Shown piece by piece: positions 4,435 to 37,534 of a stretch of 37,534 nt of DNA. Under the pieces are notes generated by a model. That model saw only the letters and a list, made by a program, of their open reading frames with translations, was not told the origin of the DNA and did no database searches. Each line of letters opens with the position of its first letter. Positions within the stretch are counted from its first letter, which is position 1. Source of the stretch: a virus; IMG/VR virus record IMGVR_UViG_3300032373_000053, positions 1 through 37,534 of that record, one strand, 5' to 3'. Both the position numbers and the translations under genes were made by a program.

Positions 4435-4707
4435 ATGAATAAGAAAACGGCAGTTGATAGCTCATTAGTTCAAGAAAATGGCAACGTAAGTGAGGTTGTT
4501 AACCTAATCCCACAAATCAACGGGACAATTAAACGCCCTTGTGTTTTTGGGGATGCTGTTATTGTTCAGTTAATTTACTCACACGATGATGAAATAACAG
4601 GCAATCCACAATATAGACGATTTATCAGCCTGATGGTGCAAAACGAAAAAATGAAGCCCGAATTGACGAATGAGGCGCGTCGGATAATGGAGAAAGATGA
4701 TGAATGA
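4435..4707 (+). CDS. Hypothetical protein (90 aa), AT-rich moron-like gene
   Basis: ATG 4435 lies 1 nt after the terL stop. The stretch is visibly more AT-rich than its flanks (aataagaaaacggcagttgatagctcattagttcaag). Confidence 0.55.
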   Translation: MNKKTAVDSSLVQENGNVSEVVNLIPQINGTIKRPCVFGDAVIVQLIYSHDDEITGNPQYRRFISLMVQNEKMKPELTNEARRIMEKDDE

Positions 4708-5052: not shown

Positions 5053-7374
5053 ATGGCCAAATCTACCGACACCACTATGCAGGACGCACTTGAGCGGTTC
5101 AGAGAGAGCCAGGAGAGTTCAGACTTCAACCGCACGAACTATTACGACGACACAAAGTTCGCTAGGTTGTCGGATCAATGGCCAGAGGATATTTACAAGC
5201 AGCGAATGCAAGAGGGCCGTCCCGCGCTTGTCGTCAATAAGATGCCGATGTTGATCCGTTCCGTTGTGAACGAGGCCCGGCAGAACAAGCCGTCTATCAA
5301 GGTTTCGCCAGTTGACAGCAACGCAGACGAGGACACAGCCGAGGTTATTGGTGGGTTAATCCGAAACATCGAACGGCAGTCTGTGGCAGGCGTTGCCTAT
5401 GATACGTCGGTTGATCATGCCGTTACAGGCGGGTTTGGTTTTTTCCGCATTGATATTGATTACGCCCACGATGAGACGTTCGAGTTAGAGGCCAGGATCA
5501 AGCGTATTGCTAACCCGCTTTCAGTTCATTGGGACACGTCCAGCACCGAATTTGATGCAAGTGATTGGGATTATGCGTTTATCTCTGATATGCTTTCGAA
5601 AGATGAATTTAAGGCCCGCTATCCCAAAGCGTCACTTGTCCCGTTTGAGGGTGACAGCCGCGACGAAAACAGCGAGTTATGGCTGAAAGAGGACCAGATC
5701 AGGGTTGCTGAATGGTTCCAGCGCGACAAGAAAGAAACTAAGCTGCTTCAAATATCCATCCCCACGCCAGACGGCCAGCCTGACTTACAGGCCGTTCGTG
5801 AAGCCGACATTCCTGCAATTGCTAAGCGGTTTTTCGAAGCTGGCAACATTCCAACCGAGGGCATGAGCGAAAAGGACTTGCGCGAGGGCTTCATGGACTT
5901 ATCAGGTGTTCAAATTCTACGTGAACGCATGGTCGAGGGTTATGACGTAAAGCGGCGCATTATCAACGGTATAGAAGTGTTAGAGGAAGATGATTGGCCC
6001 GGCCAGTCTATTCCCGTTTGTCCGGTCTGGGGTGATGAGGTTTATATTGATGGTCGGCGGCACTTTAGAAGTCTGATTCGTGACGCTAAAGACAGTCAGA
6101 TGATGAGCAACTTCTGGAGATCGGCAACGACTGAGTTAGTCGCATTGGCACCCAAAGCACCGTGGGTCGGCCCTAAAGGCTTTGTTCCAAAGGGGCAAGA
6201 GCAGAAATGGGCGAGCGCAAACACGCGGAACCACGCATACCTTGAATATGAGCCGATCGGCGCAGGGTCCCCGACACGGCAACAGTTTGCCGGGGTGCCT
6301 TCGGGTGCATTGCAAGAGATCAACCTTGCAGACCAAGCCATGCAGGACATTACTGGTATTTATCCGGCTGCCACAGGTGGCCGGTCGAACGAGACCAGTG
6401 GCAAGGCTATTCTTGCCCGCGAGCGTCAAGGCGATGTTTCAAACTTCCACTTTATCGACAACTTAAACCGCGCCATCACATACGCCGGTAAAATCTTGGT
6501 GGAAATTATCCCGGCTGTTTACAGCCCGAAGGAGGCGGTTCGCATCCTGGGTGAGGACGAGATGGCCAAGGTTGTGAATTTGACGCAAGAAGATGGCGGT
6601 AGCAATAAACCCGGCATTGATGGCCAGCAACGGCTTTATAATCTTGCGGTCGGTAAATATGATGTTGACGTTAAGACCGGGCCAAACTTCGCAACACAGC
6701 GTGAAGAAACCCGCGAGACGCTTATTGAGATTATGCGACAGGTTCCTGATGCCGCCGCGTTTATTGGTGATGTTTTGCTCGATCATATGGACTTCGTTGG
6801 TGCTGATAAGGTTGCGAAACGTCTTAAATCGTTGTTGCCCCCCGAAGTGCGTCAGGCCGAAGACGCCGCCGAGAATAGCGAAAATCCAGAAATGGCCGCG
6901 ATGCAGCAACAAATACAAGCCAAAGACCAAGAGATGAAGCAAGCCCAACAGGCTGTTATGGCAGAGATTCAAAGGCTGCAATCTGAGAACGAGGCCATCA
7001 AACAATCAAAGCAGGCTGATATGGCCAAGGCCCAAATGGACGGCCAAGCCAAGATGAAAGAACTTGCGCTAAAAGAGCGTGAGTTAGCCTTGAAAGAGGC
7101 CGAAGCGCAAAAGCCGGAACCTGATGAGACGGTCAAGATTATGGTTGATACGGAGATGCAACGCGAGCGGATGATGTTCGATGCTTCGGAAGCTGAGAAA
7201 GACCGCCAGCTAGAAATTATGAAGCTGATTATCACCAAGCGCGACGAAGGCATGACCTACGACGATGCCAAGGTCGAGGCCGAGCGCGAAGTGTCTCAGA
7301 TCGTGTTCCAGCGTGACGAAATGGGCAACATCGTGAGCGCGACCAAGATGGATGTTGAAAGCGGTATGCAGTGA
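5053..7374 (+). CDS. Portal protein (773 aa) with a long C-terminal coiled-coil
   Basis: Its position after the terminases and its size fit a portal. The last ~150 aa are E/K/Q/A/M-rich helix (AAMQQQIQAKDQEMKQAQQAVMAEIQRLQSENEAIKQ...), reminiscent of the P22 portal barrel. Confidence 0.8.
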   Translation: MAKSTDTTMQDALERFRESQESSDFNRTNYYDDTKFARLSDQWPEDIYKQRMQEGRPALVVNKMPMLIRSVVNEARQNKPSIKVSPVDSNADEDTAEVIGGLIRNIERQSVAGVAYDTSVDHAVTGGFGFFRIDIDYAHDETFELEARIKRIANPLSVHWDTSSTEFDASDWDYAFISDMLSKDEFKARYPKASLVPFEGDSRDENSELWLKEDQIRVAEWFQRDKKETKLLQISIPTPDGQPDLQAVREADIPAIAKRFFEAGNIPTEGMSEKDLREGFMDLSGVQILRERMVEGYDVKRRIINGIEVLEEDDWPGQSIPVCPVWGDEVYIDGRRHFRSLIRDAKDSQMMSNFWRSATTELVALAPKAPWVGPKGFVPKGQEQKWASANTRNHAYLEYEPIGAGSPTRQQFAGVPSGALQEINLADQAMQDITGIYPAATGGRSNETSGKAILARERQGDVSNFHFIDNLNRAITYAGKILVEIIPAVYSPKEAVRILGEDEMAKVVNLTQEDGGSNKPGIDGQQRLYNLAVGKYDVDVKTGPNFATQREETRETLIEIMRQVPDAAAFIGDVLLDHMDFVGADKVAKRLKSLLPPEVRQAEDAAENSENPEMAAMQQQIQAKDQEMKQAQQAVMAEIQRLQSENEAIKQSKQADMAKAQMDGQAKMKELALKERELALKEAEAQKPEPDETVKIMVDTEMQRERMMFDASEAEKDRQLEIMKLIITKRDEGMTYDDAKVEAEREVSQIVFQRDEMGNIVSATKMDVESGMQ

Positions 7375-17513: not shown

Positions 17514-17577
17514 GCCACAAAATTCAATTCCCTCACACGAACGGCGGCGTAATACCAACCCCGCGCACAAAGAGAAA

Positions 17578-17604
17578 TCCCGGTCAGCTCGTCACTGGCC
17601 GGGA
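17578..17604 (+). terminator. Stem-loop after the GNAT-like gene (weak terminator candidate)
   Basis: TCCCGGTCAG (17578-17587), a 7-nt loop, then CTGGCCGGGA (17595-17604). This gives 10 bp with one G-U pair. Only a weak CTTTCTC tract follows. Confidence 0.3.
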
Positions 17605-17688
17605 CAGGCTTTCTCAAATCAAACTCAACCCCTTTGTGAAAGGGCATTGAAACATGACTATACACGACACTACTCAACAACTCAATAG

Positions 17689-17717
17689 TTGATTGATGTA
17701 ATGTTGTGTATTATGAT
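17689..17717 (+). promoter_or_regulatory. Sigma70-like promoter candidate for the internal-protein, tail-fibre and lysis genes
   Basis: TTGATT (17689-17694), a 17-nt spacer, then TATGAT (17712-17717), inside a 328-bp non-coding gap. Confidence 0.4.
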
Positions 17718-17841
17718 TAAAGGACGTTTCATATAGGCTATCTGATAGCAGTATGTAATTCAATGTTCGGCAAGGGTCGCCACGGCGTCCTAATGCGGTT
17801 TTTAGAACCTGATTACAAGCGACTATATGAAAGATTAGCCC

Positions 17842-25402: not shown

Positions 25403-25921
25403 ATGATTTACCTAATAGCGCTAATTTTTGGAATATTAAACGGGTTGTGGCGTTGGTCGGACGGGACTAAAGACATTCGCGAGCGGATAAATCGGGAACC
25501 AGCCGCGACGTATGCGCGACTCCCGTGGTCGAATGTGTGGGGGTCTCTAATTCCGGGGCTGGCGTTCGGTGCGGCTATTGCATTAAAGGGCCACGAAAAC
25601 CTAATACTGACGGACTCCCTGATGCTGATCCCGTTGGCCTTGATCATCTGGTCGAACTTAGCGGCCCCTGGGGGTTGGGGTAAGTTTCTCGCCAATAAAT
25701 CGGGTATGGGGTCGCTGTTGCGGTATGTTTGCCCGTTTTTGATTGCATCTTTCGTCGTAATGTGGACACACAGCCCCCTGGGGGCGTGCCTGATAGGCAT
25801 CTATGGTATTTTAGCGGCGATGGTAGGGGCTTACGGAGAGCGTGTCTCTAGCGGCTTCCTGCTCCAGGTTGTTCACCCCGCGTTAGCTGGCTTGCCGGTC
25901 GCTGGTCTGGTTTTATTGTGA
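25403..25921 (+). CDS. Polytopic membrane protein (172 aa), unknown function
   Basis: Several hydrophobic segments. Last gene of the rightward arm. Confidence 0.6.
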   Translation: MIYLIALIFGILNGLWRWSDGTKDIRERINREPAATYARLPWSNVWGSLIPGLAFGAAIALKGHENLILTDSLMLIPLALIIWSNLAAPGGWGKFLANKSGMGSLLRYVCPFLIASFVVMWTHSPLGACLIGIYGILAAMVGAYGERVSSGFLLQVVHPALAGLPVAGLVLL

Positions 25922-25946
25922 GATTCCGCTAAATCCCTGGTTTCAG

Positions 25947-26156
25947 TTACGCCTGTTTAATCTTCGGCGCGTCGTTGGGTTGGTCTTTCAGCCACTCATT
26001 CGGCGCTTCGAGAAATTGAGGCGTGGTGTTTTCCAGCGTAGCGAGTGCCAAAATCATTCCGTTCGCCATGCCCTGCATATACGGATCATAGTTCCAGTTT
26101 CCGTCGGAAGTCTGGATCGCGGTGATGTCTTTGAGGTTTTGGATTCGGTTGTCCAT
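25947..26156 (-). CDS. Hypothetical protein (69 aa)
   Basis: Last gene of the leftward arm. A linker variant, AATCGAGCATTGGAG, lies upstream. Confidence 0.6.
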   Translation of the reverse strand: MDNRIQNLKDITAIQTSDGNWNYDPYMQGMANGMILALATLENTTPQFLEAPNEWLKDQPNDAPKIKQA

Positions 26157-26182
26157 GTCTTTAACTCCAATGCTCGATTGCG

Positions 26183-26410
26183 TCAGATTGCCGATCCGCC
26201 ATCGCCTTGTTGGGCGACCGCGAAACCGTCGTTGTAGGCCAGTACGTCACCAAAATAGTAATCAGGCCCTTGGTGTGGATCAGTGCCCTCACAGTAGAAG
26301 TAGCCTCCAGCGAACGTCGCCTTGGTGGGCGTCTTGTGCAGAGGGTTCGTGGCGTTCGGAAATAGGGTTACTAAATCGCCATCACTTAGATTTTCAAAGT
26401 CGGTTCTCAT
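26183..26410 (-). CDS. Hypothetical protein (75 aa)
   Basis: AAACGAGCCATAAGGAGACGAAC precedes the ATG. Confidence 0.6.
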   Translation of the reverse strand: MRTDFENLSDGDLVTLFPNATNPLHKTPTKATFAGGYFYCEGTDPHQGPDYYFGDVLAYNDGFAVAQQGDGGSAI

Positions 26411-26435
26411 GTTCGTCTCCTTATGGCTCGTTTCG

Positions 26436-26600
26436 TTACCGCGTTTTGATTTCGGCTACGCGCTTCAAAAGCGCAACACGAATGGATGTCGCGGGTTCGC
26501 ATCGCAAAGCGCGCTCGATCTTATGGTAGTCAGGCCGACCGTTTGCGCGGTGCGGCAATCTTCCACACACAATCCATTCGTCGTACTCGTCATCCGTCAT
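26436..26600 (-). CDS. Hypothetical micro-protein (54 aa)
   Basis: Translation is MTDDEYDEWIVCGRLPHRANGRPDYHKIERALRCEPATSIRVALLKRVAEIKTR. CAACGAGCGATTGATTGGAGGATGAC precedes ATG 26600. It fills an otherwise empty gap and is absent from the track (under 60 aa). Confidence 0.5.
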   Translation of the reverse strand: MTDDEYDEWIVCGRLPHRANGRPDYHKIERALRCEPATSIRVALLKRVAEIKTR

Positions 26601-26631
26601 GTCATCCTCCAATCAATCGCTCGTTGGTGAT

Positions 26632-26820
26632 TCAGTCGTCATCATCGATAGGCTCAAACCGGCCATCGAAAAACTCGGCTCTTGGGCGCACCCAAATTTT
26701 GTGATCTTTTAGTGATTGATAGATCACTGCGGGCTCGCCGGTCGCTTCAATGAACACATTTTTGTTCACCGCTCCGTCAATAACCCGGTACTCGCCGCCT
26801 GTCTTTTTGTGTCTCCACAT
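26632..26820 (-). CDS. DUF1653-like small protein (62 aa)
   Basis: MWRHKKTGGEYRVIDGAV...AVIYQSLKDHKIWVRPRAEFFDGRFEPI resembles DUF1653. I prefer ATG 26820, preceded by TAAACGAGCATTTGAAGGGA, over the track's TTG at 26889, which would overlap the upstream gene. Confidence 0.55.
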   Translation of the reverse strand: MWRHKKTGGEYRVIDGAVNKNVFIEATGEPAVIYQSLKDHKIWVRPRAEFFDGRFEPIDDDD

Positions 26821-26843
26821 CGTCAGTCCCTTCAAATGCTCGT

Positions 26844-27065
26844 TTAGTCTGTTAAGTCTGACAGACTGATGTCCGGCAGGTCGGTCCAAATGGTTTTTGG
26901 GTTTCCATCGCTATCCCGAGCAACGCTCTCGTCCGCCTCGTAGCACGTCTGACAGATCGGTTGATTGTTGTACGCCCGCACCATGTCGAGCGGATAGCTA
27001 ATCTCAATTGCGCAATAATCATGCTGGCACGCGACGAGTGCTTGAATTTTCGGATTGTTAGTCAT
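26844..27065 (-). CDS. 73-aa Cys4 protein, paralog A
   Basis: MTNNPKIQALVACQHDYCAIEISYPLDMVRAYNNQPICQTCYEADESV... aligns colinearly with 28917..29138. The Cx5C...CxxC pattern is conserved. Confidence 0.7.
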   Translation of the reverse strand: MTNNPKIQALVACQHDYCAIEISYPLDMVRAYNNQPICQTCYEADESVARDSDGNPKTIWTDLPDISLSDLTD

Positions 27066-27083
27066 TTTTGCACCTATGCTCGT

Positions 27084-27338
27084 TTACCAAAGGTCTTCGC
27101 TGAACAGGTCGCGCGGGTGATCCGCTGTCTCGATCTGCTTGTCGATGAATAGGGCGATGTCGCGGGCTTCGATCCGACCCACGAACCCGCGCTCGCTGTC
27201 GATGAAACCCTGATCGCCCCGGATAGGCGTCGGTAGGCCGACATTCTCGGCCATGTGGTGAATGATGTTGTGATGACGCGCTGGTGCCGGTAGTGCGTAC
27301 ACCTTGCCGTCAAATAAAATCGCCGCTGCAACTATCAT
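27084..27338 (-). CDS. Hypothetical protein (84 aa)
   Basis: TAAACGAGGGAATCAATCCG precedes the ATG. The protein ends LFSEDLW. Confidence 0.65.
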   Translation of the reverse strand: MIVAAAILFDGKVYALPAPARHHNIIHHMAENVGLPTPIRGDQGFIDSERGFVGRIEARDIALFIDKQIETADHPRDLFSEDLW

Positions 27339-27355
27339 CGGATTGATTCCCTCGT

Positions 27356-27697
27356 TTAGCTGTTGCTGATTTCGACACGTTCAGGCAGATCAGATCGCCA
27401 GGATCCAATCTCGGTCACTCGAACGTCATCGGGCCACTGGCCAGTTAGTTGCCCGTGTGCGTGAGCGCGAATGCGTCGAGCGGTTGCGACGGCGGTTGGT
27501 TGGTGGGGGCTGCAATACCGTTCGATCTGGTGACACTCGGCAACAACAACTTTTAAGGCGTCAATCTCACGACGCCGCTTGATCCGGTCGAGTGTTTCAC
27601 GAATACACCAGCCGATCCCCGTTAAGGCGGCGGAGGCAATGAATATCATGCCCAATGCAAGGCCGAGATAAAGAAAAAAACCGCTAAATATTTCCAT
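27356..27697 (-). CDS. Membrane-anchored protein (113 aa)
   Basis: N-terminal hydrophobic segment FSGFFLYLGLALGMIFIASAALTGIGW. Confidence 0.65.
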   Translation of the reverse strand: MEIFSGFFLYLGLALGMIFIASAALTGIGWCIRETLDRIKRRREIDALKVVVAECHQIERYCSPHQPTAVATARRIRAHAHGQLTGQWPDDVRVTEIGSWRSDLPERVEISNS

Positions 27698-27712
27698 AAA
27701 ATCAAACCCTGG

Positions 27713-27901
27713 TTATGGTTTTAGAACGATAGCCGCAGCGATAGCGCACATTCCGTAGAAAATGCTTTCAGCAGTCGACCATGATTTAATGGTGTCGGCA
27801 GTCGGGAATTCCACCGCGATGCCAGCGGCAACAGCAATCACCAGCGCCAGAACGACAACTGCGATAGCTGCAAATTTCCAGTATTTTATAAGAATATCCA
27901 T
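27713..27901 (-). CDS. Small two-helix membrane protein (62 aa)
   Basis: FAAIAVVVLALVIAVAAGIAV and IFYGMCAIAAAIVL. Confidence 0.6.
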   Translation of the reverse strand: MDILIKYWKFAAIAVVVLALVIAVAAGIAVEFPTADTIKSWSTAESIFYGMCAIAAAIVLKP

Positions 27902-27925
27902 TTTCTATCATCCGCTCGTTATCGC

Positions 27926-28444
27926 TCAGGCGATGTGCCTGACTCGCTCCCACATCTCGTTTTTCTCTTGGTCTGCTTTGTTGACCTGCGCGACAAGTGA
28001 CGCGACCTGATCTTCCAGGTCGAGGACTCGTTGATCCTTAATCAGATCGGCGTGAGCGTTTGCGATGTCGCGACGCAGCTTGACCGCGCCTTGCTCGAAC
28101 AACCGCCCGTGGATTACTGGATGCCACTCGTGTTGCTCGCGTTCGCGCATCACTGTCGGGCTGTCGCTACGGCCCGTCCAATAACCTCGGTCACAGCCGA
28201 GATAGCGCACCATTTCACCCTGGTTTCCCTGAAGGATCGCTTCGACGGTTCTCCGCGCCATGTCTTCGACGAAACTAACGAGATCAGGGGCGAGCTCATC
28301 TCTGACGTAGTAACGCATCTCGTCGGCAAACTCTCCGGCGAGATCGCGCATTTTCTTCTGAAACTTCTTGATCGCGTCGTCAGGCATTCCCGCCGCAAGG
28401 ACGCTTTCAAGCCTTTGGCTTAGTTCGGCATTGATGTTGTTCAT
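27926..28444 (-). CDS. Hypothetical protein (172 aa)
   Basis: TAAACGAGCCAATAGGAGAACGAAG precedes the ATG. Confidence 0.7.
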   Translation of the reverse strand: MNNINAELSQRLESVLAAGMPDDAIKKFQKKMRDLAGEFADEMRYYVRDELAPDLVSFVEDMARRTVEAILQGNQGEMVRYLGCDRGYWTGRSDSPTVMREREQHEWHPVIHGRLFEQGAVKLRRDIANAHADLIKDQRVLDLEDQVASLVAQVNKADQEKNEMWERVRHIA

Positions 28445-28466
28445 CTTCGTTCTCCTATTGGCTCGT

Positions 28467-28670
28467 TTACGATGTTTGCTCGTTCGAAAGCGGAAGCCAT
28501 TTGACAGGCATATTTCGCTTCTCGCCGTCTCGATAAACCCAGCGTCGCAATTTCCGCGACCAGTGGCCTATGCTCCAAAGTCCGTTGACGTGACCAAGAT
28601 TGATCTCGGTGCCGTCCCGTGGGACGTCATACATATCTCGCATATCCTCGTGAGGTCCGCGCATTTTCAT
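28467..28670 (-). CDS. Hypothetical Trp-rich protein (67 aa), possibly DUF551-like
   Basis: TAACGAGGGTATGACCG precedes the ATG. The C-terminal VKWLPLSNE resembles the DUF551 tail. This is weak. Confidence 0.55.
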   Translation of the reverse strand: MKMRGPHEDMRDMYDVPRDGTEINLGHVNGLWSIGHWSRKLRRWVYRDGEKRNMPVKWLPLSNEQTS

Positions 28671-28688
28671 CGGTCATACCCTCGTTAG

Positions 28689-28901
28689 TCAGGTTGTTGG
28701 CTGGTCAATATAGAACGGCTCTAACACATGCGGCGGCGGGATACTCTCAGCGCCGCAGCAAACGCACTGAAACGCCGGACTCCATTTATAAAGAACATTC
28801 GACGCCATGCCGTTTTGCCGCCATCCGTGCATGCAAGTGGTGTCACCTCGGTAAACATGCTTGTCTAATACTTTCTGCAATTCGGTTCGCGCGGTATCCA
28901 T
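28689..28901 (-). CDS. Hypothetical Cys-rich protein (70 aa)
   Basis: TAAACGAGGATTGACGCA precedes the ATG. Contains TTCMHGW...FQCVCCG. Confidence 0.6.
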   Translation of the reverse strand: MDTARTELQKVLDKHVYRGDTTCMHGWRQNGMASNVLYKWSPAFQCVCCGAESIPPPHVLEPFYIDQPTT

Positions 28902-28916
28902 TGCGTCAATCCTCGT

Positions 28917-29138
28917 TTACGCTGTTAAGTCTGAAAGTTGGACGGGCGGCAAATCACACCATTTGGTGATAGGCCAGCCGTCCCCATCGCGCGGGACGCT
29001 TTCGGCGTCGGCGTAACAATCGGGACATATTGGCTGCCCCTCATACTTCTTCACCATGTCGAGGGGATAACTCACTTCCTCGGCGCAATAGTCGTTTTGG
29101 CAGACGACGAGTGATTGAATTTTAGGTGTGTCAGTCAT
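28917..29138 (-). CDS. 73-aa Cys4 protein, paralog B
   Basis: MTDTPKIQSLVVCQNDYCAEEVSYPLDMVKKYEGQPICPDCYADAESV... Same length and cysteine spacing as 26844..27065. Confidence 0.7.
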   Translation of the reverse strand: MTDTPKIQSLVVCQNDYCAEEVSYPLDMVKKYEGQPICPDCYADAESVPRDGDGWPITKWCDLPPVQLSDLTA

Positions 29139-29153
29139 TTGCGTATCCGCTCG

Positions 29154-29654
29154 TTATTGGTTTGCAGATTGTTCGACCATGCGACGGGCAATCGAATAAA
29201 GGATAGCCATCTCAGCCGAATGGTTCCGTTCTTTGAACACATGCGCGCGGCCCGATTTTGGCTCATGCACGATGATCTTATTCGCCTCTTGGTCCCACGA
29301 AGTTTTCACGGATTTGGGTGAACCTTTGATGATGCGCACCCTGTCGTTCGCGACCTCTAATAGGCCCCACCCCTCCGGCAGATCATGAGCGCTTAATAAG
29401 CCCGCTGGGGTCATGTACCAACGGTGCGAACCTATCGATTTTTCCGGGGTGCTCTGGTGATGTTTCTTGCGATCCGCGCGGAAGTCCGACCGGGACACTT
29501 TGCATTCGATCAGCCATGTCTCTAGGCCGAAGTTTCGAAATCCGATAGCATCGGGCTGCTGAGATGTGCCCGTCGCTATCTCGGACGCGGTGACGGAGCA
29601 CCCGTTCGATTTCAGCCACCTTTCAGCCCGTTCACAAAGCTCTGCATGTGTCAT
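29154..29654 (-). CDS. PD-(D/E)XK nuclease-fold protein, MmcB-like (166 aa)
   Basis: QPDAIGF...WLIECKVSRSDFRADRKK fits the D...(D/E)xK core. I prefer ATG 29654 (MTHAELCERAERWL), which is preceded by TAAACGAGGGTATGATCCG, where TAA is the stop of the upstream gene. Confidence 0.55.
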   Translation of the reverse strand: MTHAELCERAERWLKSNGCSVTASEIATGTSQQPDAIGFRNFGLETWLIECKVSRSDFRADRKKHHQSTPEKSIGSHRWYMTPAGLLSAHDLPEGWGLLEVANDRVRIIKGSPKSVKTSWDQEANKIIVHEPKSGRAHVFKERNHSAEMAILYSIARRMVEQSANQ

Positions 29655-29670
29655 CGGATCATACCCTCGT

Positions 29671-29898
29671 TTAGTGTGTGAGTGCTTCGATGCGGACGCG
29701 TACAACGTCTCGGCCATCGCTGGTCTGCTTCCAAACCCGCTCTATGATTGCGTCGGTGTCGGAAGCGAGGATCGGAAGACCACAATTTGCGACCAGATGA
29801 TTAACCTTCGCCGCTCGCTCTGTCGGGCTTACGGTACGAACATCGATCTCAGTGCCGTGCTGAACGGCAAACCCGTATGCTGTGTCTGTCATGGTCAT
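29671..29898 (-). CDS. Hypothetical protein (73-75 aa)
   Basis: TAACCAGGGTATGACCATG. By analogy with two sister linkers, the second ATG (29892) may be the real start. Confidence 0.6.
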   Translation of the reverse strand: MTMTDTAYGFAVQHGTEIDVRTVSPTERAAKVNHLVANCGLPILASDTDAIIERVWKQTSDGRDVVRVRIEALTH

Positions 29899-29905
29899 AC
29901 CCTGG

Positions 29906-30154
29906 TTAGCGTTCTATCTTTTCCAGCAGCATTTGCTTCTGGTGTTCCAATTCTCCGATAGCCGACATGAGGGGTAATTTATCGTCATCACCGGACATGC
30001 CGCCTATCGTAAATTCTCCGTCCCGCCCCGTACCGATCAGGACAATCGAAACCAAATCGCCGTCGCGTGCCATCTGTAAGGCGTGCTCAAGACTTGCAAT
30101 TAGGTTGCTTCCAGGAAATGCGGGTCGAATTACGTTCTCAGTCATCTGGCGCAT
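29906..30154 (-). CDS. Hypothetical protein (79-82 aa)
   Basis: It overlaps the end of the upstream gene. An alternative start is ATG 30145 (ATGACTGA overlap). Confidence 0.6.
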   Translation of the reverse strand: MRQMTENVIRPAFPGSNLIASLEHALQMARDGDLVSIVLIGTGRDGEFTIGGMSGDDDKLPLMSAIGELEHQKQMLLEKIER

Positions 30155-30359
30155 CTTTAATCATGTGACGCACCATGTTGACTGCGTCATCGTACCCAAA
30201 AAGATTAGTGCCGGTTGGCTCATGCCGCATTGGATGCGGTGTGTTTTCGTTGAACATCGGCTGAAAACTAATCCCTGCGTCCGGGTTAAAGTCTTCGGGC
30301 AATTTCCAATTCAAAAAGCGTTCCGCCATATGTTTTATCTGTGCTTCGTTCATTTTCAT
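30138..30359 (-). CDS. Hypothetical protein (73 aa)
   Basis: CTAACGAGCCAATAGGAGA precedes ATGAAAATG. First gene after the 180-bp internal intergenic region. Confidence 0.65.
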   Translation of the reverse strand: MKMNEAQIKHMAERFLNWKLPEDFNPDAGISFQPMFNENTPHPMRHEPTGTNLFGYDDAVNMVRHMIKDAPDD

Positions 30360-30442
30360 TCTCCTATTGGCTCGTTAGATGTTTCTCAAAACTCATGTGT
30401 CGTTTCGCCGATGTGGCGGTTTCCTTGATGTCTCTCAAAATG

Positions 30443-30541: not shown

Positions 30542-30802
30542 TCATTGTTTTTCCTCCGGGTCACAAACGGAGGTCTGGCCCACTAGCGGTTCATCAAGGG
30601 CGCGTCGTGCGATGTTTTTGTATTCAAACGCTTGAGCGCCGTAGACCCCTTCGCCTACCGCAATCTCATTCAACGCATCCCGCAGCCGTTCAATCTCATC
30701 GGCTGCTTGCCACACAAGAAACTTTTCTTTCTTAGTCCACCCATCTGACGCTGCCAAAACACGGGCGTTATGTCGCAACTTATCTTGCAATGTGTCAGTC
30801 AT
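30542..30802 (-). CDS. Hypothetical protein (86 aa)
   Basis: ORF track entry, in the same orientation as the operon. Confidence 0.6.
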   Translation of the reverse strand: MTDTLQDKLRHNARVLAASDGWTKKEKFLVWQAADEIERLRDALNEIAVGEGVYGAQAFEYKNIARRALDEPLVGQTSVCDPEEKQ

Positions 30803-30832
30803 CGCTCTGACCTTTCGCGTTAATGGAGGTCT

Positions 30833-31225
30833 TCATGCCGCCCGCCTGTCGTCTGGGTGGGGCAGACGTATGCCAAGCTCCGCCGCCTGCCTGTCAATGT
30901 GGTTGAGGTATTCCGACATCTCTTCGACCTTGAGGCGCTTTGTGGAGTAGGTTTCCATTGGCCCATCTGGCCCCTCTGTCACAACAGGCTTAAGGAACCG
31001 CCGCATTAGCGTTTCGTGCATTTCATCTTTGGTGTAGCCGAGCGTTTTCCCTATTAAACTCAACCAATCCCAATAAAGATTGTTTTGCTCCAATGAGCGG
31101 TTTTTCTTGTAGGAGCGAATAACCACTTCAACGGGATTGTCTGGCCCGTAGTTGATCGCGTTAAGCCTGCGTATGGCTTCGTCACGGTGTCGTGGTTCTC
31201 GGATGATGATGGAATGGTTCACCAC
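30833..31225 (-). CDS. ninB: NinB/Orf-like recombination mediator (130 aa; GTG start)
   Basis: [26 protein letters not shown] and [26 protein letters not shown] parallel lambda Orf (IQERNRSLDQNRKLWACLGDV and STSRMRVGEFAELLELIQAFG). It overlaps the ssb stop. Confidence 0.65.
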
Positions 31226-34096: not shown

Positions 34097-34309
34097 TTAG
34101 CCTTCGCCGTCGCCGGAGCCGCCGCCGCGGCCGTAGCCGTAGCCGTCGCCGGAGCCGTCGCCGTCGCCGTCGCCGTAGCCGGAGCCGTAGCCGTAGCCGT
34201 AGCCGTAGCCGTAGCCGTCGCCGGAGCCGTCGCCGCGGCCGTAGCCGTAGCCGTAGCCGGAGCCGTAGCCGTCGCCGGAGCCGGAGCCGGAACCGTTACG
34301 CGGGTTCAT
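34097..34309 (-). CDS. Gly/Tyr/Asp/Ser low-complexity protein (70 aa)
   Basis: Translation is MNPRNGSGSGSGDGYGSGYGYGYGRGDGSGDGYGYGYGYGYGSGYGDGDGDGSGDGYGYGRGGGSGDGEG. Same strand as all its neighbours. It overlaps the upstream gene by 14 nt and stops 16 nt before the next ATG. Confidence 0.55.
   Translation of the reverse strand: MNPRNGSGSGSGDGYGSGYGYGYGRGDGSGDGYGYGYGYGYGSGYGDGDGDGSGDGYGYGRGGGSGDGEG
34103..34290. repeat. Hexanucleotide tandem array (GCCGTA/GCCGTC/GCCGGA units)
   Basis: About 30 consecutive 6-nt units are visible at 34103-34290. Confidence 0.9.
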
Positions 34310-34705: not shown

Positions 34706-34734
34706 AACATACGAAAGCCTAATTGACGTGTCAA
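34706..34734 (-). promoter_or_regulatory. Leftward early promoter candidate
   Basis: The minus strand reads TTGACA (34734-34729), a 17-nt spacer, then TATGTT (34711-34706), about 30 nt upstream of ATG 34673. The -35 box lies in the near-palindrome TTGACGTGTCAA (34723-34734). Confidence 0.55.
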
Positions 34735-34873: not shown

Positions 34874-35092
34874 ATGAAAACATTAATCCAAAAGGCAGCT
34901 AATATTGCAGGGGGCACCGAGGCGTTAGCGCGGCGTCTTTCCTGTTCGCGTCAGGCTATTTCTCAGTGGCACGGCAAAGTGCCGCGTGGACGGGCGTTGG
35001 AAATTGAACTTATAACTGGCGGTGCAGTAACCCGTCACCAGTTGAGGCCGGACCTGTTCCCGCCAGAGGATTCAAGCGAAAGCGCGGCATAG
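34874..35092 (+). CDS. Cro/YdaS-like HTH transcriptional regulator (72 aa)
   Basis: AANIAGGTEALARRLSCSRQAISQWHGKVPRGRALEIELITGGAV fits the Cro/YdaS HTH pattern. AAGGA precedes ATG 34874. Confidence 0.65.
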   Translation: MKTLIQKAANIAGGTEALARRLSCSRQAISQWHGKVPRGRALEIELITGGAVTRHQLRPDLFPPEDSSESAA

Positions 35093-35143
35093 CTTCTCAC
35101 GGACCTCCCCTAGGCGGGGTGCCTTCATCCCTGCCTACAACTA

Positions 35144-35171
35144 CCCCGGCGCTTCGGCGTCGGGGGCTTTT
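35144..35171 (+). terminator. Rho-independent terminator with a UUCG tetraloop
   Basis: CCCCGGCGC (35144-35152), TTCG, GCGTCGGGG (35157-35165; 9 bp including one G-U), then GCTTTT. Confidence 0.65.
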
Positions 35172-35409
35172 GGAAAGGAGTATTTTGCAGAGCGGCGGCG
35201 TGGAAAGCAGACACGCAGCGTTAGCAGCCACGTAAAGGTGAATGGCGTCAGACGGTAAGGCTCTTTGACATTCCCTTTAGCCGGAGTAGCGCCCGGCCCG
35301 CTCTGCAAAGTGTTCTGAGTTTACGCGCATCCCGCTTCGAACACGGGAGCTATACCCATCAGCTGGGGAGTGGGGCGCAAATCCCCGGCACAGATTTGGA
35401 GAGAGTGAA

Positions 35410-36047: not shown

Positions 36048-36217
36048 CCCTCCTTGATGAACAAGATGACCCGCTAATCGTTCAGTATTTCGAGAAGTAC
36101 AAACAGTGCCAGAGCCGCGCTGACACACGAGGCATGGATAAGTGGGCAGCAAAGGCCAAGGAACTGCGCACCGCGCTCATGCGGGACGCCTACGGGATAA
36201 GGGAGGCGGCTGAATAG
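36044..36217 (+). CDS. Hypothetical micro-protein (57 aa)
   Basis: Translation is MTLLDEQDDPLIVQYFEKYKQCQSRADTRGMDKWAAKAKELRTALMRDAYGIREAAE. ATGA overlap upstream and TAGTG overlap downstream. Absent from the track. Confidence 0.5.
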   Translation: MTLLDEQDDPLIVQYFEKYKQCQSRADTRGMDKWAAKAKELRTALMRDAYGIREAAE

Positions 36218-36894
36218 TGGCGCGCATAAGAACAATTAAACCGGGTTTCTGGCAGCATGAAGACCTAAGCGAGTTACCGCCCGAGGTTCATATGATGGCT
36301 GCGGCATTACTCAATCACTCCGATGATGAAGGGTATTTCAAGGCCAACGATAAACTTGTTAAAGCGGCATGTTGTCCACTCCGTGAGGACTCCGTGAGTA
36401 CTCATGGAGCGCTCATTCAGTTGGAAAAAATAGGGTTTATCGAAATGTTTGAAGGGACTGACGGAAAAAAGTACGGGCATGTTGTCAAATTCCTTGATCA
36501 CCAGACCATCAGCCGCCCAACCGCTAGTAAAATCAAGAAGTTACAGCCACTCACGGAGGACTCACTGAATACTCATGGAGTGCTCCATGAGGACTCCATG
36601 CAGGAAAGGAAGGGAAAGGAAGGGAAAGGAAAGGAAGGGAGAGACGCGCGCGAAAGATTGGAGCCGGAAAACTTCAAACCCATGCAGGCAGATAATTTAG
36701 TTCCCGCGAATTGGCTACCAGACAAAACCGATTATTGGAAAAACGAGGCAGAAAAGTTTGTAGCCCACTATGCCGGGAAGGATGGCACGCCGCACACCGA
36801 TTGGCGGGCAACTTGGAATTTGTGGCGTCTGAGAGCGCCGGAGTTTGCGCCAGCGAAACCGACCGAGGTTGATCACTACGCGGGGTGCATATGA
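36217..36894 (+). CDS. Replication-initiator-like protein (225 aa; GTG start)
   Basis: The ARIRTIKPGFWQHEDLSEL...NHSDDEGYF N-terminus resembles prophage proteins I recall seeing next to primases. It contains iteron-like DNA repeats and is coupled to the primase-helicase (ATGA). Confidence 0.45.
   Translation: MARIRTIKPGFWQHEDLSELPPEVHMMAAALLNHSDDEGYFKANDKLVKAACCPLREDSVSTHGALIQLEKIGFIEMFEGTDGKKYGHVVKFLDHQTISRPTASKIKKLQPLTEDSLNTHGVLHEDSMQERKGKEGKGKEGRDARERLEPENFKPMQADNLVPANWLPDKTDYWKNEAEKFVAHYAGKDGTPHTDWRATWNLWRLRAPEFAPAKPTEVDHYAGCI
36377..36420. repeat. Iteron-like array 1 (4 tandem 11-mers)
   Basis: cactccgtgag, gactccgtgag, tactcatggag, cgctcattcag. Confidence 0.7.
36548..36603. repeat. 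Iteron-like array 2 (5 tandem 11-12-mers)
   Basis: cactcacggag, gactcactgaa, tactcatggag, tgctccatgag, gactccatgcag. Confidence 0.7.
36602..36644. repeat. 43-nt homopurine tract with a 10-bp tandem unit (ggaaaggaag, three copies)
   Basis: aggaaaggaagggaaaggaagggaaaggaaaggaagggagaga contains purines only on the + strand. It encodes KGKEGKGKEG. Confidence 0.85.
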
Positions 36895-37534
36895 GCGATA
36901 TTCACGAGATCAAGCGCGAGTTGGCCAGTCGGGCGTTATCGGTTTGCGAACGTCTTCTCCCTGGTGGCCGGAAGGATGGCGCGGAGTTCAAGGCCGGATC
37001 AGTTTCGGGTGAGGCCGGCAATTCCCTTTCGGTGAGTTTGACGGGTTCGAAAGCTGGCGTCTGGCGAGATTTTGCCGAGAGCGACAAGGGCGGCGATTTA
37101 CTAGACCTCTGGCAACAATCGCAGGGGATTTCGCTGGTTCAAGCATTGGATGAGGCAAGGGATTTCCTCGGATGGGAAAAGCCTAAATTCGTTGGCCAGA
37201 AACGAGAATGGACGCGACCCGAAGCGCCGAAGGGAACAACGAAAGTTAAGGATCGGGTGAGGGATTATCTAACCGAGGATCGGTGTATTCCGGATCAAAT
37301 TCTTGAAAAATACAAGGTTGCTGCGAAGGGCAACGAAATTGTTTTCCCGTTCATTGCTGATGGCGTTTTGCGAATGATCAAAACCCGTACTGCGGAGGAT
37401 GGAGGAAAGCCAAAACCAACGGGGCCGAATCAGGAATGCGTTTTATTCGGCTGGCAGGCCATCCCCGACGATGCCCGAGAGGTAACGATTACCGAAGGTG
37501 AAATAGACGCTTTATCGATGGCGGCATACGGCTA
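36891..37534 (+). CDS. Bifunctional DNA primase/helicase, N-terminal part (open at the window end, continues at 128..1295 once the overlap is removed; about 603 aa in total)
   Basis: ATG 36891 overlaps the TGA of the upstream ORF (ATGA). The frame stays open to the window edge, which is why it is absent from the ORF track. Translation starts MSDIHEIKRELASRALSVCERLLPGG and includes VTITEGEIDALSMAAYG (TOPRIM-like acidic motif). It is in frame with 111..1295 after subtracting 37407. Confidence 0.8.
   Translation, partial: MSDIHEIKRELASRALSVCERLLPGGRKDGAEFKAGSVSGEAGNSLSVSLTGSKAGVWRDFAESDKGGDLLDLWQQSQGISLVQALDEARDFLGWEKPKFVGQKREWTRPEAPKGTTKVKDRVRDYLTEDRCIPDQILEKYKVAAKGNEIVFPFIADGVLRMIKTRTAEDGGKPKPTGPNQECVLFGWQAIPDDAREVTITEGEIDALSMAAYG
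37408..37534. repeat. Terminal direct repeat, copy 2 (circular-assembly overlap)
   Basis: Identical to bases 1-127. An exact 127-bp end overlap is typical of a circular contig from a de Bruijn assembler. Confidence 0.95.

Follow-up and report, generated by a model that had tools for sequence, protein, structure and literature searches.

The window analysed here is the whole 37,534-nt stretch of DNA, a P22-like phage genome from a metagenome, the host of which is probably an uncultured alphaproteobacterium. Its leftward early operon is headed by a sigma-70-like promoter and ends in an accessory block of small ORFs separated by motif-bearing linkers (Table 1), with the phage's own exonuclease, annealing protein, SSB, and NinB encoded just upstream of the block. 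Scanning of the 25.9–34.7 kb region revealed no further good promoter, nor a terminator on the minus strand, and the accessory block, which lies farthest from the start of the early-left operon, is probably one transcript. The block proteins are mostly unrelated, with only one paralogue pair among the 16, and family matches were obtained for some of the ORFs (phrog_631, phrog_839, phrog_796, phrog_23796, and DUF1653). The regulators detected in the phage are limited to a Cro-like protein and a second HTH protein; neither a CI-type repressor nor an integrase was detected among its proteins. TAA serves as the stop codon of 11 of the 16 genes in the block, compared with 11 of 46 elsewhere in the genome. 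The initial annotation had counted 15 accessory genes; its 15 motif-bearing junctions stand, but the block holds 16 genes.

Table 1. Positions of the linker motif copies and associated features in the window (bits are PWM scores; D3, D4, D5, and D8 are repeat families).
Feature	Position	Strand	Remarks
Sigma-70-like promoter TTGACA-17-TATGTT	34706..34734	-	head of the leftward operon ending in the accessory block
Accessory block	25947..30377	-	16 small ORFs (54-172 aa), distal end of leftward early operon, motif-bearing linkers between ORFs
Site 1 TAACGAGC	30370..30377	-	family A linker TAACGAGCCAATAGGAGAATGAAAATG; D5; TAA not confirmed as stop; 16.8 bits
Junction without motif (only one in block)	30138..30154	-	two genes overlap, ATGACTGA type
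Site 2 TAACCAGG	29901..29908	-	CCAG variant, GGTATGACC linker; D4, D8; TAA is stop of 29906-30154; 18.0 bits
Site 3 TAAACGAGG	29665..29673	-	family B; TAA is stop of 29671-29898; motif GAGG is best SD; 21.4 bits
Site 4 TAACGAGC	29149..29156	-	family C, CGGATACGC; TAA is stop of 29154-29654; upstream of X1; 15.6 bits
Paralogue X1	28917..29138	-	73 aa, CxxC...CxxC; 64-65% aa identity to X2
Site 5 TAAACGAGG	28911..28919	-	TAA is stop of X1; 15.1 bits
Site 6 TAACGAGG	28680..28687	-	family B; upstream gene ends at TGA 1 nt before; TAA conserved, unused as stop; 20.6 bits
Site 7 TAAACGAGC	28461..28469	-	family A; D5; TAA is stop of 28467-28670; separate AGGAGA SD downstream
Site 8 TAACGAGC	27914..27921	-	family C; TGA stop of upstream gene 7 nt before; 18.6 bits
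Site 9 TAACCAGG	27708..27715	-	CCAG variant; D8; TAA is stop of 27713-27901; 16.8 bits
Site 10 TAAACGAGG	27350..27358	-	B-like; TAA is stop of 27356-27697
Site 11 TAAACGAGC	27078..27086	-	family D; TAA is stop of 27084-27338; upstream of X2
Paralogue X2	26844..27065	-	73 aa; pair with X1
Site 12 TAAACGAGC	26838..26846	-	family D; TAA is stop of X2; 20.5 bits
Site 13 (CC)AACGAGC	26619..26625	-	without TAA; upstream TGA 9 nt before; strong separate GGAGG SD downstream
Site 14 (G)AAACGAGC	26426..26433	-	family A-like, CCATAAGGAGA; D3; upstream TAA 6 nt before; 11.1 bits (3.3 leave-one-out)
Site 15 AATCGAGC variant	26172..26179	-	family D-like; 14.6 bits
Site 16 AAACCAGG (GAAACCAGGGATTTAG)	25936..25943	-	newly noted degenerate copy; 8.9 bits

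An oriented signal of 7–8 bases, T(A)AACGAG(C/G), lies between the accessory genes, and its reality is confirmed. All 15 sites proposed initially were recovered at their positions in a single orientation: on the minus strand, every one of the 15 junctions listed for 26.1–30.4 kb carries A(A/T)C(G/C)AG(C/G), 12 of them with exact AACGAG. Across both strands of the window, exact AACGAG was observed 31 times against 18.4 expected, 16 of these copies being on the minus strand at 26.4–30.4 kb; the window contains 14 copies of TAA(A)CGAG, and each of the 10 within the region sits at a junction. Within 30 nt upstream of start codons, AACGAG precedes 12 of the 16 accessory genes and the relaxed form 15 of the 16, and the motif is found at none of the other 46 gene starts (0/10 proximal left-operon genes and 0/36 plus-strand genes). 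The block specificity corresponds to a Poisson P of ~2e-21, and Markov-2 simulations gave a mean of 0.27 motif-bearing junctions and a maximum of 3; the motif is non-random. When a position weight matrix (PWM) built from the 15 sites was scanned over the window, these sites scored 11–21 bits with the full matrix and 3–20 bits in leave-one-out scoring (lowest 3.3, at 26430), and every other window position scored at most 12.6 bits. Comparison with the ORFs shows that exactly nine junctions, the number given before, use the motif's TAA as the actual stop codon of the preceding gene.

The degenerate sixteenth copy starts 3 nt past the TAA of the last accessory gene, is followed by no ORF, and fills the gap in which the accessory block converges on the end of the plus-strand gene at 25403–25921. 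In 75 kb, just 11 untrained positions reach 8.9 bits or more, so the probability of meeting such a site by chance in a gap of roughly 10–25 nt is ~0.002–0.004. This trailing copy has no gene to restart, which speaks against the restart reading.

The linkers share a common layout, in which the A/C-rich end of the upstream ORF is followed by T(A)AACGAG(C/G), a variable stretch of 5–15 nt, and the ATG. The spacers are 15–32 nt long, with the motif at the stop-proximal edge of each and the start codon 9–19 nt away; the distance of 8–18 nt reported initially holds when measured from the end of CGAGS. The conserved element is longer than was claimed: the 9 nt upstream of the motif are A/C-rich (0.65 vs. 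0.52, p = 0.002), weaker conserved positions downstream read N-W-W-T-R-A, and the element with its flanks spans ~15 nt, of which 7–8 nt are strongly conserved. Position +4 is exclusively C or G, and the S at this position correlates with linker design. In the six GAGG/CAGG-type linkers, the motif lies 9–12 nt from the start and is the best Shine-Dalgarno (SD) sequence in about four to five of them; in the nine GAGC-type linkers, it lies 11–19 nt from the start and a distinct, stronger SD follows downstream. The C at position 0, which never varies, weakens pairing with the anti-SD, and the share of the motif in 16S pairing is almost nil in GAGC-type linkers (-2.2 kcal/mol). Predicted base-pairing is lower at the motif than at control positions (0.38 vs. 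0.55), and examination of the linkers for a conserved hairpin, promoter, terminator, or Rfam match yielded none.

The paralogues X1 and X2 offer a view of how the linkers have evolved. Their identity per codon position is 0.75/0.75/0.47, and the four cores flanking them are intact while third positions are near-saturated (0.47) and the rest of the linkers has diverged; that an old paralogue pair keeps all four flanking cores argues for constraint on the core. The homology of the X1/X2 cassette begins at the upstream TAA and stops ~17 nt beyond the downstream TAA. Across linker sub-families, the core is identical and the variable parts are unrelated; within them, identities extend over 18–35 nt, and both examples cited initially (the 18-nt repeat at 28450–28467 and 30359–30376, and the repeats at about 28674–28686, 29659–29671, and 29895–29907) were found again as repeat families D3, D4, and D5. 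The linkers of sites 7 and 1 are 93% identical over 29 nt, and those of sites 10 and 3 are 82% identical over 34 nt, first codons included. The sub-families A, CCAG, B, and X+D repeat in the same order at offsets of 1.9–2.3 kb, and the ORFs between the recurring sub-families differ in length and have no detectable similarity, with the ~2 kb periodicity being weakly supported (lag-7 p = 0.03 uncorrected, 0.21 corrected). A core of 8 nt is short for homologous recombination, for which only the 18–35 nt sub-family identities are long enough.

Beyond this genome, the motif is absent from ~20 loci related via the annealing protein or NinB, and exact-match scans of three collections detected no linker array in related or unrelated genomes. 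In other phages, the homologues of three of the genes (73 aa, 71 aa, and 166 aa) lie at overlapping, linker-free ATGA junctions; since related phages express similar arrays by simple ATGA overlaps without the motif, it is not required for such operons. The initial interpretation is partly supported. Among the three roles considered (termination-reinitiation or translational coupling, RNA processing or regulator binding, and a boundary of exchangeable cassettes), the cassette boundary is the only one that gains direct within-genome support, from paralogue limits, sub-family order, the trailing copy, and linker-free homologues elsewhere, but no second genome with a linker array was found, so that cassette exchange between genomes would be hypothetical.

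Judged from sequence comparison, the motif would represent the invariant 5' module shared by the short linkers that punctuate the 16-gene block. Tentatively, this module seems to be under selection as a cis-acting stop-and-restart punctuation of the mRNA, and to have served in addition as the joint where a block was duplicated and ORFs were replaced, a reading that we prefer while having considerable doubt. Under this model, purifying selection would maintain the core, and the motif, acting in cis on the mRNA, would terminate the upstream ORF, keep the junction single-stranded, and supply a ribosome landing or re-initiation site, so that any ORF placed between two linkers could be translated independently. 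The SD is the motif's own GAGG in short linkers and a separate GGAG-type sequence in long ones. As the same oriented sequence is repeated 16 times, the linkers could also serve as joints for duplication of a roughly 2 kb block and for replacement of ORFs. However, a generic restart role fails to explain the exact AACGAG, given that the C at position 0 weakens anti-SD pairing and the GAGC-type motif adds practically nothing.

The main rival, which is possible but on the unlikely side, is an mRNA operator for a trans-acting factor of the phage or host (an RNA-binding protein, a small RNA with a seed match, or a single-strand-specific endoribonuclease), through which all accessory cistrons would be repressed, activated, or cut together. 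The invariant asymmetric core of 7–8 nt, with a C that rRNA pairing leaves unexplained, matches in size an sRNA seed or the binding site of a protein on RNA; predictions leave it largely unpaired, it falls inside the ribosome footprint at each of the 15 starts, and it is confined to one functional block in a regulon-like manner, and the trailing copy is more in keeping with processing or a 3' end than with restarting. Nevertheless, no accessory or early protein matches an RNA-binding or RNase family, the longest complement in the non-coding stretches of the phage (5–6 nt) is at chance level, and Rfam gave no match. The motif does not resemble the known RNase E, RNase III, or RegB sites. A purely recombinational joint or relic without expression function, either crossover microhomology that is regenerated or a remnant inherited from an ancestral linker by repeated duplication, is rather improbable. 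It would account for the long sub-family identities, the recurrence of linker types in the same order ~2 kb apart, the paralogue boundaries inside linkers, the adjacent recombination genes of the phage, and the trailing copy; yet neutral decay would be expected to match third codon positions (47%), whereas the cores are intact beside randomised linker positions. Moreover, only C or G occurs at +4, and this base varies together with the position of the SD, which suggests a connection to expression, and no linker-carrying partner genomes were found.

Two further explanations are given little weight. It is quite improbable that the motif acts at the DNA level like a stoperator, bound by a monomeric protein that would block or modulate transcription across the accessory genes: an asymmetric element of ~15 nt with its flanks, held in one orientation relative to transcription in short intergenic spaces beside stop and start codons, would suit such a protein, but its strongly conserved part is only 7–8 bp, the copies are restricted to 4.4 kb of one operon with none at early promoters, and the phage proteins gave no CI-type repressor or integrase. 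The least probable reading is a plain, possibly host-specific, ribosome-binding site or an alternative-sigma promoter element before each gene. AACGAGG is one base off the extended SD AA(A)GGAGG, and where the motif is the best predicted SD of a short linker the spacing is 8–9 nt; an 8-bp element can also suffice as a promoter, as in T4 late promoters, where it acts alone. The mismatching C is nonetheless invariant, the distance to the start is variable, the nine GAGC-type linkers have their separate SD, and the remaining 46 phage genes have ordinary SDs and no motif, which upholds the earlier view that it is not simply a ribosome-binding site. A second promoter element at constant spacing is missing, scanning for sigma-70 promoters gave nothing consistent, and no sigma-like protein was identified.

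Among known systems, the closest analogues are the start-associated sequences (SAS) of mycobacteriophages and the PeSLs of T4. SAS and ESAS, described in Cluster K mycobacteriophages and Microbacterium cluster EF phages (PMC3203893, PMC7302621), are likewise short, asymmetric, one-orientation repeats with 10–19 copies per genome, confined to the non-structural genome part at junctions before genes of unrelated families, sometimes containing the upstream stop codon, and RBS-like but more conserved than an RBS. The SAS is 13 bp with a perfect AGGAG, located 3–7 bp from the start codon, mostly in gaps >50 bp (PMC3203893, PMC7302621), whereas the present motif has a 7–8 nt core with an SD-breaking C, is stop-anchored at the 5' edge of 15–32 nt spacers at a variable distance from the start, and has a separate SD in nine copies. 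In addition, SAS are conserved across a whole phage cluster with actinobacterial hosts, while the motif was found in one genome with a probable alphaproteobacterial host. PeSLs of T4-type phages combine a sigma-70-like early promoter with a stem-loop terminator, both functionally tested, and their shuffling was demonstrated by sister-phage comparison and mini-circle detection (PMC2839356, PMC4122927). Like the present linkers, PeSLs are repeated oriented signals flanking small, non-essential, mutually unrelated ORFs in a variable region, proposed both as expression signals and as recombination joints for modular shuffling; the linkers here, however, lack a promoter, stem-loop, or terminator, their identities are much shorter, and shuffling would be deduced from within one genome.

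Stoperators are 13–14 bp long and tend toward short intergenic spaces near stop and start codons. In Cluster A mycobacteriophages, a monomeric immunity repressor binds them, and they occur throughout the phage genome (PMC9283540). They resemble the present motif as asymmetric sites at many positions oriented with transcription (PMC9283540, PMC6550527), but here the copies, with their shorter core, all lie in a single block of 4.4 kb, and no repressor was detected. A common signal at many early cistrons and joint post-transcriptional handling of a polycistronic transcript are also features of T7 early mRNA, in which RNase III cuts intercistronically at long hairpins, and of T4, in which RegB cleaves at GGAG within the SD and RegA represses at sites overlapping the AUG. 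None of these looks like a single-stranded AACGAG beside a stop codon, and neither a nuclease nor a repressor gene was identified here. Integron attC sites are imperfect inverted repeats of 55–140 bp with RYYYAAC/GTTRRRY cores that are recombined by the IntI integrase. Although the 15–32 nt spacers lack inverted repeats and have cores of a different kind, and the phage encodes no integrase, the block is reminiscent of an integron in its promoterless, one-orientation ORFs of mixed origin, each bounded by a repeat that is also present after the last cassette.

A short oriented motif, T(A)AACGAG(C/G), marks the junctions of a block of small accessory genes, and the observation is real and well supported: every site proposed in the initial annotation was confirmed in place on the minus strand, and all 16 copies now recognised lie on that strand within 25.9-30.4 kb. 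Exact AACGAG occurs no more than 30 nt upstream of the start codon in 12 of the 16 accessory genes (15 had first been counted), and the relaxed form A[AT]C[GC]AG[CG] in 15 of them. The earlier impression that almost every junction carries the motif thus holds for 15 of the 16 genes and fails at 30138-30154, a plain overlap without it. None of the 46 other gene starts is preceded by the motif (0/10 proximal left-operon genes and 0/36 plus-strand genes), which bears out its reported absence from the structural arm and the recombination genes. The enrichment has a Poisson P of ~2e-21; in simulations on a Markov-2 background, the kind of control suggested with the initial annotation, the number of junctions with the motif averaged 0.27 and never exceeded 3. 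In a full-matrix scan of both strands (75 kb), a weight matrix built from the 15 sites scored these at 11-21 bits and everything else at no more than 12.6 bits. The sub-families into which the linkers had been sorted are also real, as is the use of the motif's TAA as the actual stop codon of the upstream ORF in nine junctions; TAA terminates 11 of the 16 accessory genes versus 11 of the 46 others. A degenerate 16th copy, GAAACCAGGGATTTAG (25936-25943, minus), follows the stop codon of the last accessory gene directly and has no gene downstream; outside the training set no more than 11 positions of the window reach its score, so its placement by chance is unlikely. A possible decayed relative of the linker, TAACGCGAAAGG, one base off TAACGAG, lies shortly before the block in the spacer that follows NinB (30802-30833, minus).

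When the linkers are aligned on the C of CGAG (position 0), positions -2 to +3 (AACGAG) are invariant or nearly so and +4 is always C or G, while positions +6 to +10 weakly follow N-W-W-T-R-A and frequently provide a second stop triplet. Although they encode the C-terminal ends of unrelated proteins, the nine bases preceding the motif are rich in A and C (0.65 vs 0.52, p = 0.002). Because TAACGAG and TAAACGAG forms both occur, the fixed unit is AACGAGS, which the stop codon of the upstream ORF overlaps in two registers. With sites numbered from 30370-30377 (site 1) down to 26172-26179 (site 15), the TAA is nonetheless present at sites 6 and 8, where the upstream gene stops earlier, and at site 1, where no confirmed ORF ends; the distal sites 13-15 keep the core and lack the TAA. 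At all sites the motif is the first element of a 15-32 nt spacer, 0-9 nt from the stop codon, and its distance to the next start codon varies from 9 to 19 nt.

The window has identical termini of 127 nt (1-127 and 37408-37534) and hence represents a complete phage genome of ~37.4 kb, circularly assembled or terminally redundant, with the primase-helicase gene spanning the end joint. It encodes a P22-type portal and coat protein and a Terminase_3 large terminase, and cultured phages are only distant kin, with best terminase and portal identities of 36-40%. An annealing protein homologue in Roseovarius indicus, together with Rhizobium phage RHph_I1_23, which shares 73% nucleotide identity over 163 nt with one accessory gene, suggests an alphaproteobacterial host. 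Promoter and terminator scans revealed no further good promoter and no minus-strand terminator inside the leftward operon, which makes the accessory block the probable distal end of a single early transcript.

Layout of the genome and longest non-coding identities among linkers
Feature	Coordinates	Strand	Remark
Replication, packaging, virion and lysis genes	1-25,921	plus	
cro-like gene	34874-35092		faces the leftward operon
Sigma-70-like promoter TTGACA-17-TATGTT	34734-34706	minus	head of the leftward operon
Leftward operon			in order: DUF6948, exonuclease, single-strand annealing protein, SSB, NinB, 16 small ORFs
16 small accessory ORFs	30,353 down to 25,947	minus	
Site 1 with site 7; site 7 with site 14	30374/28465/26430	minus	sites 1 and 7: 29 nt, 93%
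Site 2 with site 9, plus trailing copy	29905/27712/25940	minus	
Site 3 with site 10	29669/27354	minus	34 nt, 82%
Paralogues with their downstream linkers	28915/26842	minus	

The motif is not simply a ribosome-binding site, as had been argued from the sequence, and a generic one is rejected: other genes of the phage have ordinary Shine-Dalgarno (SD) sequences and no motif, and the separate, better SD that had been noticed at several junctions is present in all nine linkers of the GAGC type (C at +4). In these nine, with a generic 16S tail that may differ from that of the host, the motif pairs negligibly with the anti-SD (-2.2 kcal/mol), and a GGAG-like SD 4-7 nt before the start codon reaches -5.9 to -11 kcal/mol. 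The comparison with the 16S 3' end proposed earlier came out differently in the six short GAGG/CAGG-type linkers (9-12 nt to the start), where the motif is the best match to the same generic tail in about four to five of six. The invariant C of the motif is the very base that breaks an extended SD, AA(A)GGAGG. Predicted pairing of the motif is 0.38 vs 0.55 at random positions of the same transcript, and no conserved hairpin was found, which speaks against a hairpin or RNase III-type structure at the linkers. Nor did the scan reveal, at the gene junctions, any consistent sigma-70 promoter or intrinsic terminator. On inspection against their consensus sequences, boxA (similar on the wrong strand only), the CtrA box, ECF-type promoters and Chi-like sites are unfit in position and/or orientation. 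Rfam produced no match at the gathering threshold anywhere in the window, which also contains no tRNA or tmRNA.

Only one paralogous pair exists among the 16 accessory proteins (28917-29138 and 26844-27065, both 73 aa, 64-65% amino-acid identity), and an origin of the whole array by tandem duplication of one gene is rejected on this ground. The duplication is old, as third codon positions are only 47% identical, and the homology extends from the upstream TAA to ~17 nt past the downstream TAA, so that the duplicated unit was linker-ORF-linker. All four cores flanking the paralogues are intact while the other linker bases have diverged, and across the sub-families the core is identical and the variable parts are unrelated. 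Because the cores persist against this background of diverged third positions and linker sequence, neutral inheritance is insufficient, and selection on the core or its continual regeneration is needed. Linker pairs also recur in constant order at offsets of 1.9-2.3 kb, and the ORFs in between are dissimilar in sequence and vary in both length and number. This arrangement is suggestive of an old segmental duplication of ~2 kb, in ~2.4 copies, followed by replacement of ORFs between kept linkers; it is given as no more than suggestive because a lag permutation test of the ~2-kb periodicity returned p = 0.03 uncorrected and 0.21 corrected. Since about half of the accessory ORFs have homologues or family matches elsewhere, they are real genes of mixed origin.

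The search of related phages that the initial annotation called for did not recover the linker, either among ~20 loci related through the single-strand annealing protein (SSAP) or NinB or by exact-match scans. Relatives fetched via the annealing protein, NinB, the 166-aa protein, the 73-aa paralogue family and the Rhizobium phage match (L001-L011, L018-L021, L041-L043 and L163-L167) lack the motif and join the small genes of their arrays by ATGA overlaps or by linkers with a plain SD; in the SSAP/NinB-related loci, several of which share the overall layout, the motif is not enriched. Readable contexts of accessory-gene homologues (the 73-aa family in three contigs, the domain of the 71-aa gene in the Rhizobium phage and the 166-aa family) are ATGA-type overlap arrays without the linker. 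The exact 18-mer of linker family A, AACGAGCCAATAGGAGAA, has no match in viral_contigs, 6 in genome_contigs and 19 in metagenome_contigs, all of them single copies within chromosomal genes or ordinary RBS contexts and in a number close to chance expectation. For the two-site pattern TAAACGAG-N-ATG-N-TAAACGAG, nothing comparable was found among the matches listed from viral_contigs, which were AT-rich contigs with AAC-GAG as in-frame coding sequence or unrelated repeats. No close relative of the phage was found in the collections searched, the best annealing-protein matches reaching no more than 82% identity over a part of its length, and a neighbouring late gene has no relative in viral_contigs; the linker may be private to an unsampled lineage. 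Repeated junction sequences of other kinds were encountered. In the L165-L167 lineage, three junctions share a plain and strong RBS, AAAGGAGAGAACC; in L165, a phage related via the annealing protein and NinB, it appears as AAAGGAGAGAACC(A)ATG at non-overlapping junctions (2265-2282, 4611-4628 and 5060-5078) with no AACGAG. An unrelated AT-rich viral contig, L131, carries five minus-strand copies of GAGCGTTTAAACGAG, including the palindrome CGTTTAAACG (317, 896, 1131, 2453 and 4080), upstream of gene starts or TTGACA-like promoters; this is a different repeat system in which AAACGAG is contained by coincidence.

Throughout one block, the core is a selected, oriented and single-stranded-looking element at the stop-proximal edge of the spacer; at most junctions it and the SD are separate, and it is associated with the boundaries of cassettes and blocks. 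The reading we prefer, tentatively and at somewhat short of an even chance, is cis-acting stop-and-restart punctuation of the mRNA that has also been a joint for duplication and ORF replacement. The motif would supply or back up the upstream stop, keep the junction open and provide, in front of the SD, a place where ribosomes land or re-initiate; being repeated, it could also have served as the joint. The weak points of this reading are that it does not explain why the sequence has to be AACGAG and no other, that one copy trails the last gene and that relatives do without the motif. Less probable is a role as an operator, recognised in trans by an RNA-binding protein, an sRNA or an RNase. It would account for the invariant core and the trailing copy; no candidate factor was found, the early and accessory proteins having no match to RNA-binding, nuclease-toxin, sigma, repressor or integrase families. 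A phage-encoded antisense or sRNA seed is rejected, the best complement in the non-coding stretches of the phage being 5-6 nt, at chance level. A hairpin, CCCGGTCAG-CTCGTCA-CTGGCCGGG, lies midway through the virion operon, in a 328-nt gap that holds no convincing gene (17514-17841, plus), and its loop CUCGU complements ACGAG, again over 5-6 nt only and at chance level.

A pure recombination joint or relic is rather improbable, as the evidence of constraint on the core speaks against it. Stoperators are asymmetric DNA sites of 13-14 bp. They are bound by the phage immunity repressor and spread across the phage genome, oriented with transcription (PMC9283540), whereas the sites here all fall within 4.4 kb of a single operon and no repressor gene was recognised; a stoperator-like role is accordingly very improbable, and a plain RBS or alternative promoter is the least probable of all. 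A more far-reaching proposal, unlikely on our estimate, is that AACGAG(C/G) constitutes a dedicated recognition code, read either by a factor that switches or cuts all accessory cistrons jointly (putatively a phage or host RNA-binding protein, an sRNA or a single-strand endoribonuclease) or as the crossover site of an integrase-free gene-capture array. The latter would putatively be run by the phage's own exonuclease and annealing-protein system, as a translational-cassette counterpart, in a P22-like phage, of integrons and PeSL (promoter-early stem-loop) cassettes. Integron attC sites are 55-140 bp long, with inverted repeats and RYYYAAC/GTTRRRY cores, and are served by the IntI integrase. 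An attC array proper is rejected here, there being no integrase domain, only 15-32 nt spacers without inverted repeats, and a core that, on inspection, does not fit the consensus.

Among known repeats, the closest descriptive match is the start-associated sequence (SAS) of Cluster K mycobacteriophages and Microbacterium EF phages, which is oriented, restricted to non-structural genes, placed before unrelated genes and RBS-like but over-conserved, with its function unknown (PMC3203893, PMC7302621). Within this one genome, the motif is likewise short, asymmetric, in one orientation, confined to non-structural genes and placed before unrelated ones. However, SAS contains AGGAG and sits in the place of the RBS, 3-7 bp before the start codon, whereas the core here lies 9-19 nt away, has C for the G of the SD, is accompanied by a separate SD in nine linkers and is anchored to the stop rather than to the start. 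SAS is also conserved across related phages; for this motif, ~20 SSAP/NinB-related loci and exact-match scans yielded no related genome that carries it, and the collections contain no close relative of the phage. PeSLs hold a sigma-70-like promoter and a stem-loop terminator; at the junctions here no promoter is consistent, no hairpin is conserved and the block has no minus-strand terminator. Recombination between PeSL repeats inserts, deletes or replaces ORFs, and possible signs of such events exist within this genome in the paralogue boundaries inside linkers, the ordered linker families and the trailing copy. The proposed role as punctuation and joint would parallel that of T4 PeSLs, which combine the two at the transcriptional level (PMC2839356). 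The motif belongs among the phage-specific junction-associated repeats.

Phages acquire, try out and lose new genes in their accessory regions, and to our knowledge it is poorly understood how small ORFs of unrelated origin can enter an operon and still be expressed. If the preferred punctuation reading is true, a concrete, testable rule for ORF insertion and expression would follow, in which a short linker under selection, anchored to the stop codon, serves both as translational punctuation and as the mark of cassette exchange points. Junction-associated repeats such as SAS, stoperators and PeSLs have, as far as we know, come mainly from actinobacteriophages and T4-like phages, and the present case would extend them to a P22-like podovirus of a probable alphaproteobacterial host. 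Should a factor acting in trans instead target the motif, the result would be a new phage regulon, controlled at the post-transcriptional level. In practical terms, the linker could be a compact part for synthetic polycistronic arrays.

Several other features of the genome deserve mention. Early in the leftward operon, a 70-aa ORF (34097-34309, minus) consists almost entirely of Gly/Tyr/Asp/Ser repeats and is built from 32 copies of a 6-nt unit. Past the cro-like gene lies a 317-nt non-coding stretch (35093-35409) with GC-rich hairpins and no Rfam match. A purine-rich tandem repeat, AGGAAGGGAAAGGAA x 2.6 (36602-36640, plus), within ORF 36217-36894 and 5' of the primase-helicase gene, could represent iterons of a replication origin in an initiator-like gene. 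Just past the end of the late operon, two terminator-like plus-strand hairpins (25963-26024) sit inside the last minus-strand accessory gene, where they probably halt late transcription before it enters the accessory block in antisense.
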